DNA of 64,000 nucleotides from a virus. The notes under the pieces are model-generated. The model was not told the DNA's origin, ran no database searches, and saw only the letters and a program-made list of their open reading frames with translations. Shown in pieces: positions 34,865-38,987 of this stretch. The stretch lies in the UHGV virus genome UHGV-0018629. The stretch is one strand, 5' to 3'. Position 1 is the first letter of the stretch. Every line of letters begins with the position of its first letter. Made by a program: the position numbers and the translations under genes.

Positions 34865-37800
34865 ATGGCTACTTTAAAACAAATACAATTTAAAAGAAGC
34901 AAAACGGCAGGTCAACGTCCAGCTGCTTCAGTATTAGCCGAAGGTGAATTGGCTATAAACTTAAAAGACCGTGTACTTTTTACTAAAGATGACCAAGGAA
35001 ATATTATTGATTTAGGTTTTGCTAAAGGCGGTAGTATTGACGGGAATGTTATTCATAAAGGCAATTATAACCAAACTGGCGATTATACTTTAAACGGTAC
35101 ATTCACCCAGACTGGTAATTTTAATTTAACCGGTATTGCTCGAGTAACTCGTGATATTATTGCTGCTGGGCAGATTATGACTGAAGGCGGAGAACTTATT
35201 ACAAAAAGTTCAGGTACATCACATGTTCGTTTTTTCGATGGCAATAGCCGCGAACGCGGAATCATTTATGCCCCGGCTAATGATGGTTTAACTACACAAG
35301 TACTTAATATCAGAGTTCAAGATTACAAAGCCGGTTCGGAAAATACTTTTTCTTTTAGCGGTAATGGTCTTTTCACATCGCCGGAAGTTTCTGCATGGAA
35401 ATCTATGTCAACTCCCCAGATTTTGACTAACAAAGTCATTACTAATAATAAATCTACGGGTGATTATGACATTTATTCGATGGCAGACAATGTTCCACTG
35501 TCTGAAAGCACTACTGCTATTAATCATCTACGTGTCATGCGCAATGCAGTCGGTTCTGGTATTTTCCATGAAGTTAAAGATAATGATGGAATAACTTGGT
35601 ATAGTGGAGATGGATTAGATGCTTATCTTTGGTCATTTACCTGGAGCGGCGGAATTAAATCAAGCCACTCAATTTCTATCGGTTTAACACCCGGTAATAA
35701 AGATTATTCAATATTAGGACCATCTAGCATTGCTTTAGGAGATAATGATACTGGATTTAAATGGCATCAAGACGGATATTATTTCAGCGTTAATAATGGC
35801 ACAAAAACGTTTTTATTTAGCCCTAGCGAAACAACTAGCCTAAGAAAATTTGTAGCTGGATATTCTACTAATGGAACCGATTTAACTACTCCTCCGACTG
35901 AAAACTATGCTCTTGCTACTGTCGTGACATATCACGACAATAACGCGTTTGGAGATGGTCAGACTCTTTTGGGGTATTATCAAGGCGGTAATTATCATCA
36001 CTATTTCCGCGGTAAAGGTACTACAAACATTAATACTCACGGAGGGTTATTAGTTACTCCTGGTAATATTGATGTTATTGGCGGTTCTGTTAATATTGAT
36101 GGTAGAAATAATTCTTCTACACTGATGTTTAGAGGTAACACAACTGGTAGTAGTTCAGTTGATAATATGACAATTTCTGTGTGGGGTAATACATTTACTA
36201 ATCCTAGTGAAGGTAATCGTAAAAACGTCATGGAAATTTCTGATGCAACTAGTTGGATGAGCTATATTCAAAGACTTACTACTGGTGAAATAGAAATGAA
36301 CGTTAATGGTTCATTTGAATCATCTGGTGTTACTGCTGGAAATAGGGGAGTTCACACAACAGGCGAAATTTCATCTGGAGCAGTGAATGCACTTCGCATT
36401 TGGAACGCAGATTATGGAGCCATTTTTAGACGTTCAGAAGGTAGTCTTCATATTATTCCAACTGCTTATGGTGAAGGCAAAAATGGCGATATCGGTCCAC
36501 TTCGCCCATTTAGTATGGCTTTAGATACCGGTAAAGTTACTATTCCAGATTTACAATCAAGTTACAATACGTTCGCTGCTAACGGTTATATTAAATTTGT
36601 TGGTCATGGAGCGGGTGCCGGCGGTTATGACATTCAATATGCTCAAGCGGCTCCTATTTTCCAGGAAATTGATGATGATGCTGTAAGCAAATATTATCCT
36701 ATTGTTAAACAGAAGTTTTTAAACGGTAAAGCCGTTTGGTCTTTAGGTACTGAAATTAATTCTGGTACATTTGTTTTACATCATTTGAAAGAAGATGGTT
36801 CACAAGGCCATACATCAAGATTTAATGCTGATGGTACAGTTAATTTCCCCGATAACGTTCAAGTCGGCGGCGGTGAAGCTACTATTGCTCGTAATGGTAA
36901 TATTTTCTCAGATATTTGGAAATCGTTTACTTCTGCGGGAGAAACCACAAATATTCGCGATGCAATAGCTACTCGTGTTTCTAAAGAAGGCGACACGATG
37001 ACTGGTAAATTGACTTTATCGGCAGGCAATGATGCTCTCGTTTTAACTGCAGGGGAAGGTGCTTCATCACATATCCGTAGTGATGTAGGTGGTACAGGTA
37101 ACTGGTATATAGGCAAAGGAGGCGGCGATAATGGTCTAGGTTTTTACAGTTACATTACACAAGGCGGTGTATACATAACAAATAACGGCGAAATATCGCT
37201 TTCTCCTCAAGGTCAAGGAACATTTAATTTTAATAGAGACCGCCTTCATATAAACGGTACACAATGGGTTGCGCATAAATCTGGCGCCTGGGGTGACCAA
37301 TGGGGTTTAGAAGCTCCTATATTTGTAGATTTTGGATCCGTCAGCAATGACTGCTATTATCCTATTATTAAAGGAAAATCTGGTATTACTAACGAAGGAT
37401 ATTTTTCCGGCGTAGATTTTGGTATGCGACGCACTACTAATAACTGGGCGCAAGGTATTATTCGTGTAGGTAACCAGGAAAATGGTTCTGACCCGCAAGC
37501 TATATATGAATTCCACTATAATGGAACTCTGTTTGTTCCTAACATGGTTCAAACTGGAGCAAGATTATCAGCTGGCGGTGGTGACCCGGTGTGGACTGGG
37601 CCATGTCTTGTTATTGGTGATAATGATACTGGTTTAGTCCATGGCGGTGATGGCCGAATCAATATGGTTGCCAATGGTGTTCATATTGCTTCATGGTCAT
37701 CTGCTTATCATCTCCATGAAGGTCTTTGGGATACTACTGGTGCTTTGTGGACTGAGCAAGGAAGAGCTATTATTTCTTTTGGTCATTTAATCCAACAGAG

Positions 37801-38176
37801 TGATGCATATTCAACGTTTGTCCGTGATGTTTATGTCCGTTCTGATATTCGCGTTAAAAAAGACCTCGTTAAATTTGAAAATGCTTCTCAGAAGCTTTCT
37901 AAAATTAACGGTTACACTTATATGCAGAAGCGAGGCCTGGATGAGGAAGGTAATCAGAAATGGGAACCTAACGCCGGTTTAATTGCTCAAGAAGTTCAAG
38001 CTATTTTACCTGAATTAGTTGAAGGCGATCAGGATGGTGAAGCTTTACTTCGTTTGAACTATAACGGTGTAATTGGTTTAAATACAGCTGCTATCAATGA
38101 GCATACCGCAGAAATTGCAGAACTTAAATCCGAAATTGAAGAGCTTAAAAAATTAGTTAAATCATTGTTAAAATAA
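34865..38176 (+). CDS. 37: Long tail fibre distal subunit gp37 with C-terminal intramolecular chaperone (peptidase S74-like) domain
   Basis: 1103 aa; C-terminal SDIRVKKDL...[15 protein letters not shown]...coiled coil matches auto-cleaving IMC domain signature. Confidence 0.9.
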
Positions 38177-38181
38177 TAAGA

Positions 38182-38195
38182 GGGGCTTCGGCCCC
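38182..38195 (+). terminator. Hairpin ggggc-ttcg-gcccc immediately after gene 37 stop (attenuator or mRNA-stabilising structure)
   Basis: No strong T-run; gene 38 Shine-Dalgarno follows directly. Confidence 0.35.
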
Positions 38196-38207
38196 TTGGA
38201 GGTTTAT

Positions 38208-38987
38208 ATGGCAGTAGCAGGACCGTGGATAGGAACTTCTGCATTGGCACAGACTGGAGACCATTGGATGGCAGGAGCAGCCGCAAGATTAAGAATGGGT
38301 GCTCCATTTTGGATGAGTAATATGATAGGTCGATCTGTTGAAATAATTCACACGCTTGGAGCAGACCATAACTTCAACGGTCAATGGTTCCGAGATAGAT
38401 GTTTTGAGGCAGGTAGTGCACCTATAGTGTTTAATATTACTGGAGATTTAGTATCATATTCTAGAGATGTTCCTTTATTTTTCATGTACGGAGATACACC
38501 TAATGAATACGTTCAACTGAACATACACGGCGTAACGATGTATGGTCGTGGTGGGAATGGTTGGGCCGCTGGTGCAATTGGAGCATCTGATGGCGGTGTA
38601 TGTATCCAGAATGATATAGGTGGACGTCTGCGAATTAATAATGGCGGAGCTATTGCCGGTGGCGGCGGTGGCGGCGGTGGTTATTCACAAGCCAACAACT
38701 GGGCGGGAAAATATGTTTGTGGTGGCGGCGGCGGTCGTCCATTCGGCTTAGGCGGAAATAATGGTGCTCGATGGCCTGGTGGTAATGCTAGTTTGACGTC
38801 TCCGGGTGCTGGCGGTAATACTGGTACAGGGTATTATGCAGGTGGCGGTGGTGAAGTTGGTCAGCCAGGACAATATGCTAATCCAGGTGCTGGTTATTCA
38901 ACACCTCCGACAAGTCCTGGCGCTGCTGTAGCAGGATCAGCTCCAACATGGCAGAATGTTGGAGCAATATATGGTTCAAGAGTATAA
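38208..38987 (+). CDS. 38: T2-type tail fibre tip adhesin gp38 (glycine-rich motifs flanking variable segments)
   Basis: 259 aa from MAVAGPWIG; GGGGGGGG/GGGGG runs; GGAGG Shine-Dalgarno at 38197-38201. Confidence 0.88.

Follow-up and report, generated by a model that had tools for sequence, protein, structure and literature searches.

A T2-type long tail fibre tip with a predicted OmpC-recognising gp38 adhesin in the virus genome UHGV-0018629

We analysed a 64,000-nucleotide stretch of the virus genome UHGV-0018629 (hereafter the window; one strand, 5′ to 3′) with respect to its genes 37 and 38 (g37 and g38). The two genes very probably encode the distal tip of a long tail fibre of the T2 type, in which gp37 would cleave itself, gp38 would dock on the resulting tip, and OmpC would be bound through loops A–E of gp38. 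Nothing in the sequence contradicts a T2-type fibre tip. The module as such is already known from genetics of 1985–87 and from the structures of S16 (2018) and PP01 (2026), and named proteins with 98% identity exist; the sole addition made here is the specific receptor call, OmpC. The two genes are as follows.

34865–38176, plus strand: g37, precursor of the distal subunit of the long tail fibre, 1103 residues, 119.0 kDa (open reading frame (ORF), Pfam, annotated homologues)
38208–38987 including the stop codon, plus strand: g38, assigned as a T2-type receptor-recognising adhesin, 259 residues, 26.0 kDa (Pfam, identity to PP01, PDB matches)

The gp38 protein is covered by two Pfam families. 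Gp38_N (PF21721) matched residues 1–40 on positions 1–40 of 40 (71.5 bits against a cut-off of 25, E 5.6e-20), and GP38 (PF05268) matched residues 45–259 on profile positions 1–218 of 218 (242.9 bits against a cut-off of 25, E 4.3e-72). In the PDB, gp38 matched the receptor-binding domain of PP01 gp38 (9V85, E 2.9e-143), with two mismatches within residues 41–259, and S16 gp38 from end to end (6F45_D, E 8.6e-52). The protein was aligned with its counterparts from T2, T6, PP01, KNP5 and S16. The identity was 98.1% to PP01, 95% to KNP5, 64% to T6 and 49% to T2, and the divergence lay between invariant glycine motifs and was concentrated in the loops. Glycine accounts for 33% of residues 113–259 as compared to 11% of residues 1–112, and its runs include stretches of eight (151–158), five (172–176) and four (212–215). 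The window has 44 stop-free stretches of 150 residues or more; of these, the gp38 frame is the richest in glycine (23%), followed by the gp37 frame (13%). The C-terminal motif APxWQNVGxIYGxRV is conserved. The gene is also placed as are those of T2-type adhesins, directly after a g37 that carries an intramolecular chaperone (IMC) domain and before the holin gene t. These data support the assignment of gp38 to the T2-type adhesins, as an earlier note based on the bare sequence had proposed for this glycine-rich protein of 259 residues. Its position at the fibre tip of the virion would be that of PP01 gp38, whose presence at the tip and binding to the outer-membrane receptor have been shown (PMC12892980). 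Two regions of the protein were delimited.

38208–38327, plus strand: N-terminal attachment domain, residues 1–40, with Trp7, Trp20 and Trp35 (Pfam Gp38_N)
38544–38861, plus strand: glycine-rich motif region, residues 113–118 (GRGGNG), 146–158, 172–183, 200–203 (GAGG) and 211–218 (AGGGGEVG), invariant across five adhesins; the boundaries were set by us from the alignment

The three tryptophans of the attachment domain do not vary between the window, PP01, KNP5, T2 and T6, and they are matched in S16; this N-terminus has been described in terms of 'tryptophan prongs' (PMC7917993). The remainder follows the adhesin architecture of five glycine-rich motifs and four hypervariable segments (PMC3157838). 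The glycine motifs fold as a sandwich of the poly-glycine-II (PGII) type from which loops protrude (PMC12892980).

The N-terminal part of gp38 (residues 1–46; 38208–38345) is mosaic. Residues 1–21 are as in PP01, with 8 differences from KNP5, and at residues 22, 26, 32 and 46 neither phage is matched. The part of gp37 on which gp38 would dock (residues 801–1000) is 100% identical to that of KNP5. Such a pattern is indicative of recombination or drift within the 'lock-and-key' domain.

The gene name g38 and its place between g37 and t are shared with T4, and some database records call homologues of the protein 'distal long tail fiber assembly catalyst'. An assembly chaperone of the T4 type, absent from the virion, would fit these labels. 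The earlier note had named an alignment with T4 gp38 as evidence against the adhesin; a BLASTP comparison of the two proteins gave no meaningful alignment (E = 17, 26 aligned residues), and this candidate was rejected. The lengths also differ (259 residues here and 183 in T4), Pfam returns adhesin families, and the T4 record itself states that the T2-type 'gp38' is unrelated. We consider a T4-type chaperone nearly inconceivable. The difference from T4 extends to gp37, as T4 gp37 has its own receptor-binding tip and no S74 domain, and the alignment is lost over the last 300 residues.

Within the adhesin, the receptor loops were located with the limits published for PP01 (PMC12892980). All five are identical to those of PP01.

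38562–38579, plus strand: receptor loop A, residues 119–124 (WAAGAI)
38688–38717, plus strand: receptor loop B, residues 161–170, with Tyr159, Lys168 and Tyr169 in it or adjacent to it
38757–38774, plus strand: receptor loop C, residues 184–189 (NNGARW)
38817–38834, plus strand: receptor loop D, residues 204–209 (NTGTGY), with Gly208 and Tyr209; KNP5 has G208R
38880–38900, plus strand: receptor loop E, residues 225–231 (NPGAGYS), with Ala228 and Tyr230

Over its full length, gp38 differs from PP01 gp38 at five positions (A22G, A26Q, A32I, I46V and S236N), none of which lies in loops A–E. The S236N substitution is the only one in the distal half; it follows loop E at a distance of five residues and also occurs in KNP5. 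The seven residues Tyr159, Lys168, Tyr169, Gly208, Tyr209, Ala228 and Tyr230 are the same in both proteins. In the case of PP01, residues 158–170 are essential for adsorption and the Y159A substitution abolishes infectivity, while Tyr209, Ala228 and the conformation of loop E are needed for infection (PMC12892980). Gly208 of PP01 gp38 cross-links to OmpC loop 5 and Tyr230 to OmpC loop 7; loop E, the main specificity loop, enters the cleft between these two OmpC loops, and loop 7 of O157 OmpC has a GVIN insertion, absent from K-12, that is essential (PMC12892980). The variable segments between glycine runs, which the earlier note had named as the likely specificity determinants, thus correspond to the recognition loops A–E mapped experimentally in PP01 (PMC12892980).

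Given that loops A–E do not differ from those of PP01 gp38, O157-type OmpC with GVIN in loop 7 is the most likely receptor. Of the receptor types listed in the earlier note (OmpA, OmpC, OmpF or FadL), the alignment specifically favours OmpC. In this loop, O157:H7 OmpC reads KNLGVINGRNYDD where K-12 (W3110) reads KNL----GRGYDD. Among 5426 complete genomes of E. coli, at least 1835 had an ompC matched by a 48-nt probe across the loop-7 insertion of O157, a count that is a lower bound owing to the megablast word size. Many of these genomes are non-O157 and come from humans, pigs and other sources, and the predicted receptor allele therefore occurs commonly outside O157 too. As host range will also depend on other loops, on lipopolysaccharide (LPS) and on the O-antigen, the OmpC call is not a host-range prediction.

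A T2-type adhesin could nevertheless use a receptor other than O157-type OmpC, namely OmpA, Tsx, OmpF/FadL, LPS alone or another OmpC allele such as that of Shigella. The class as a whole uses Tsx, OmpA, OmpF/FadL or OmpC, and small changes in hypervariable segments can shift specificity (PMC3157838, PMC12032242); moreover, the closest genomes come from Shigella hosts and S236N adjoins loop E. Against this stand the identity of the five loops and of all seven residues tested in PP01, and the low identity of gp38 to the adhesins of T2 (receptors OmpF/FadL) and T6 (receptor Tsx), with divergence mostly in the loops. Closely related gp38 proteins are reported to share a receptor (PMC12032242), and an allele from Shigella would be OmpC all the same. 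We regard another receptor as unlikely.

Several points weigh against our preferred reading of the fibre tip, with O157-type OmpC as its receptor. Shigella, and not O157, was the isolation host of the nearest genome relatives (KNP5, Sfk20 and pSs-1), and the phage may therefore have another natural host and use another OmpC allele. The S236N substitution beyond loop E is a candidate that may have an effect. In experimental evolution of PP01, single loop substitutions changed the adsorption rate (PMC6027323), and near-identity to PP01 is thus no guarantee of the same host range. Loop B of PP01 may also contact LPS (PMC12892980), so OmpC is perhaps not the sole determinant. At the level of protein structure, a single-sequence model of the IMC domain of gp37 (described below) was too poor for fold-level support. 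There is also a small chance that the differences from PP01 (S236N, three substitutions in the attachment domain and a KNP5-type gp37 shaft) give a preference for another OmpC allele or host, for example Shigella-type OmpC; nearly the same adhesin is found in phages isolated on Shigella, and at least a third of the complete E. coli genomes have a loop 7 of the GVIN type. If so, the phage would offer a naturally occurring variant with which the influence of residues outside the loops on specificity could be mapped.

The practical value of the OmpC assignment is that a receptor, OmpC with the loop-7 GVIN insertion, can be predicted for this phage from sequence. It could aid in choosing or engineering phages against strains with GVIN-type OmpC. 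No new biological question is opened; the module, the cleavage, the structure and the receptor contacts have all been published.

The second part of the tip is the C-terminal end of gp37. The Pfam family Peptidase_S74 ('chaperone of endosialidase', PF13884) matched residues 993–1052, at the extreme C-terminus of the 1103-residue protein, with 47.4 bits against a curated cut-off of 22 (E 2.4e-12), and the match covers profile positions 1–57 of 58. The sequence SDIRVKKDL begins at residue 993. The codon of Ser993 (TCT) occupies nucleotides 37841–37843 and that of Lys998 (AAA) nucleotides 37856–37858; the two residues form an S-x4-K pair, which we take to act, as in other members of the S74 family, as nucleophile and general base, respectively. 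The S, D, R and K of SDIRVK are invariant in the five gp37 proteins compared, i.e., those of the window, PP01, KNP5, T2 (SDIRLK) and T6 (SDSRLK). The last 190 residues of gp37 aligned with S16 gp37 (PDB 6F45_A, E 1.6e-43) through the SD.R.KK motif. In this alignment, the cleavage-site stretch of the window sits opposite S16 RDLNVSSDRRIKKDI, and the published cleavage-site serine falls on Ser993 (DLNVS^SDRRIKK in S16, DVYVR^SDIRVKK in the window). Identical residues occupy 63 of the 112 aligned positions of the two IMC domains. The relevant features are given below.

37826–37840, plus strand: DVYVR, residues 988–992, the last five residues of the predicted mature gp37; aligned with DLNVS of S16 and DVYIR of fPS phages before the cleavage site (PMC7917993)
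37841–37858, plus strand: S-D-I-R-V-K, with the predicted scissile bond between Arg992 and Ser993 (motif invariance, alignment with S16)
37841–38173, plus strand: IMC domain, residues 993–1103, 111 residues, 12.4 kDa (PF13884, S16 IMC, profile search)
38093–38173, plus strand: C-terminal heptad or coiled-coil helix of the IMC, residues 1077–1103 (a/d pattern read from the sequence)

A search with a profile built from four such domains retrieved 6F45_A, the autoprocessing domain of MYRF (7DC3, E 2.7e-9), the phage fibre 8JOV (E 3.8e-8) and the released neck-appendage chaperone of GA-1 (3GUD, E 0.008). Chain 3GUD_A begins exactly at the serine aligned to Ser993, and the SD of S16 and of MYRF is aligned likewise. 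In the last 27 residues of gp37, the heptad a/d positions are hydrophobic (Ile1077, Ile1084, Leu1087, Ile1091, Leu1094, Val1098 and Leu1101). The single-sequence AlphaFold2 model of the IMC was of low confidence (mean predicted local distance difference test score, pLDDT, 59.5), with the exception of the terminal helix (pLDDT 88–92). These results support the presence of a Peptidase_S74/intramolecular chaperone domain at the C-terminus of gp37. All features of the region that the earlier note had placed were found at their positions, including the S74 signature, the C-terminal coiled coil (Ile1077 to Leu1101) and, to the nucleotide, the predicted cleavage serine at 37841.

On this evidence, gp37 is strongly predicted to be cleaved between Arg992 and Ser993, which would yield a mature fibre subunit of 992 residues (106.6 kDa) and a released domain of 111 residues (12.4 kDa). 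The S16 protein is reported to cleave itself between both serines of its site after trimerisation and to shed its last 113 residues, the loss of which exposes the docking face for gp38 (PMC7917993). The gp37 proteins of T2 and T6 are stated to be cleaved C-terminally and then to receive gp38 as a cap (PMC3157838, which refers to Drexler et al. 1986). From the S16 structure, the strand DVYVR would be expected to provide the docking face for gp38 (PMC7917993). The domain could instead be a degenerate remnant that does not cleave and is kept on the fibre, with gp38 attached in another way, since the processing of gp37 is here a prediction and some S74-like domains might have lost their activity. 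The serine, the lysine and the intervening aspartate and arginine are, however, invariant in the five T-even gp37 proteins and in S16, and the match spans the whole Pfam profile. The homologous proteins of T2, T6 and S16 are those reported as cleaved, and in S16 the docking face is exposed only after cleavage. A non-cleaving remnant thus appears very improbable.

The gp37 shaft contains, at residues 449–550, a match to Gp34_trimer, the C-terminal trimerisation domain of gp34 (31.9 bits; cut-off 27), which suggests that the proximal and distal fibre subunits have a module in common.

Taken together, the following course of events is proposed for the fibre tip. The genes g36, g37 and g38 would be transcribed late from TATAAATA at 34169. 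The gp37 precursor would trimerise from its C-terminal end, nucleated by the chaperone domain and the coiled coil. Autoproteolysis by Ser993 and Lys998 would then cut the chain before Ser993, with the 111-residue chaperone departing after trimerisation, and would bare a flat trimeric gp37 tip ending in DVYVR. One gp38 molecule would dock on this tip through its N-terminal domain, and its C-terminal part would fold as a beta-helix and PGII sandwich, with loops A–E projecting to the receptor. The loops, chiefly loop E in the cleft between OmpC loops 5 and 7, would bind OmpC reversibly, and adsorption would start. The trimerisation, the cleavage, the docking geometry and the OmpC binding we infer for this phage from S16, T2 and PP01.

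The closest known system is Escherichia phage PP01, whose gp38 (259 residues; receptor OmpC of E. coli O157:H7) equals that of the window in length as well as in loops and tested residues. The PP01 IMC is 97% identical and has the same DVYVR^SDIRVKK site, and the intergenic hairpin and the ribosome-binding site of g38 are also the same. Besides the five substitutions in gp38, the differences lie in gp37, which has 1109 residues in PP01 and 1103 in the window and in which the identity of the shaft drops to 72–87% in parts, and in the genomic backbone, which is closer to KNP5, Sfk20 and ECp13. Calculated per block of 100 residues, the identity of gp37 was 83–100% to KNP5 and 72–100% to PP01. The gp37–gp38 pair of Salmonella phage S16 (6F45) is alike in its trimeric gp37 tip, autocleaved IMC and monomeric gp38 with the Trp-prong domain and PGII sandwich, and its receptor is also OmpC (PMC12892980). 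In contrast, the receptor loops of S16 are different and shorter, the residue before the scissile bond is serine in S16 and arginine here, and the gp37 tip before the cleavage site can be aligned only in part.

T2 and T6, the original 'adhesin' systems of Henning's group, share with the window the gene order, the S74 motif, the glycine motifs and the C-terminus of gp38. They differ in having their own loops, which match their receptors (T2, OmpF/FadL; T6, Tsx; PMC3157838), and a two-residue 'VP' insertion in the gp38 N-terminus that is absent here; their gp37 shafts are largely unrelated to that of the window. More distant are the S74 domains of endosialidase tailspikes, the T5 L-shaped fibre, the GA-1 neck appendage and MYRF. 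These are likewise located C-terminally on a trimeric fibre, start with S-D-x-R-x-K and have a GxIAQE..LPE core followed by a terminal helix, but the similarity is remote (profile E 2.7e-9 to 0.008), and their cleavage yields a finished spike, whereas here it would produce a docking site for a separate adhesin.

The junction between g37 and g38 contains the following elements.

38174–38179, plus strand: tandem stop codons TAA TAA that end g37
38180–38197, plus strand: intercistronic C(UUCG)G hairpin, GAGGGGC-UUCG-GCCCCUU, present in the minimum-free-energy and centroid folds and abutting the ribosome-binding site of g38
38198–38202, plus strand: Shine–Dalgarno sequence GGAGG of g38, 5 nt before the ATG

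The hairpin stem is conserved in PP01, KNP5, T2 and T4, and T6 has the loop variant GGGGCTTTGCCCC. For the 61-nt hairpin context, the fold energy is unremarkable (z = −0.87). We considered an intrinsic plus-strand terminator for this element and rejected it, as the element has no run of T, and a terminator scan of the plus strand between 37500 and 39800 returned none at the hairpin. A promoter scan of the same interval gave promoter-like sites only at chance level. The program that listed the ORFs had extended g38 to a TTG codon at 38196. We place the real start at ATG 38208, because GGAGG lies 5 nt upstream, residues 1–40 counted from it coincide with positions 1–40 of the Gp38_N profile, and the PP01, KNP5 and T2 proteins start at MAV or MAI.

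With respect to transcription, we found the sequence TATAAATA, which we take to be the T4 late-promoter consensus, in front of two of the fibre genes.

34169–34176, plus strand: TATAAATA, T4-type late-promoter consensus, 31 nt upstream of the start codon (ATG) of g36
29102–29109, plus strand: second copy, 42 nt before the g34 ATG

The window holds eight copies of this sequence, which is no more than expected by chance, and only the position of the g34 and g36 copies is suggestive. Considering this position and what is known of T4, the copy at 34169 is the probable promoter of a late g36–g37–g38 transcript.

The surrounding 24 kb is about 96% identical at the DNA level (96–97% range) to Shigella phage KNP5, Sfk20 and ECp13, which places the window in a Tequatrovirus genome. 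Between 37000 and 39700, the DNA is 97.5% identical to KNP5 and 94.3% to phages AR1 and PP01. The gene order is g34-g35-g36-g37-g38-t, the standard long-tail-fibre cluster of T-even phages, with all genes on the plus strand, and asiA- and motA-type genes follow t on the opposite strand. The other members of the cluster are listed below.

29144–33013, plus strand: g34, 1289 residues
33022–34137, plus strand: g35, 371 residues
34200–34856, plus strand: g36, 218 residues (Pfam Phage_T4_gp36)
39018–39674, plus strand: t, holin, 218 residues (Pfam Phage_holin_T, E 2.1e-117)

The exact protein sequences of gp37 and gp38 are already present in public assemblies (Logan, ENA; contigs up to 166,101 bp), and the clusters that hold them include members named 'receptor-recognizing protein gp38'. 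Three short ORFs on the minus strand (38059–38307, 38748–38873 and 38894–39085) lie within conserved coding sequence and were taken as chance ORFs. Scans of the whole 64-kb window with Rfam, at the gathering threshold, and for tRNA gave no matches. In the hinge connector gp35 (ORF 33022–34137, plus strand), residues 58–126 matched the Pfam family ILEI ('interleukin-like EMT inducer') with 33.1 bits (cut-off 27; E 8.1e-8), an unexpected family label.

Some other genes of the window were compared with their T4 counterparts. Thymidylate synthase (22067–22927, minus strand, 286 residues) and the small subunit of ribonucleotide reductase (18030–19196, minus strand, 388 residues) are each encoded by a single uninterrupted ORF, and over the whole 64 kb the Rfam scan detected no group I intron. 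T4 has introns in td and nrdB, and the phage thus differs from T4 at these genes. The large subunit of topoisomerase II (50777–52597, minus strand) is one ORF of 606 residues with GyrB, HATPase and TOPRIM_C domains up to its end. Judging from its length and domains, it would be the fused form of genes 39 and 60; T4 has the split form with the translational bypass cassette of gene 60. Finally, two adjacent large ORFs on the minus strand (539–2596, 685 residues, and 2600–4696, 698 residues) each contain an ADP-ribosyltransferase exoenzyme domain and look like tandem Alt-like paralogues.

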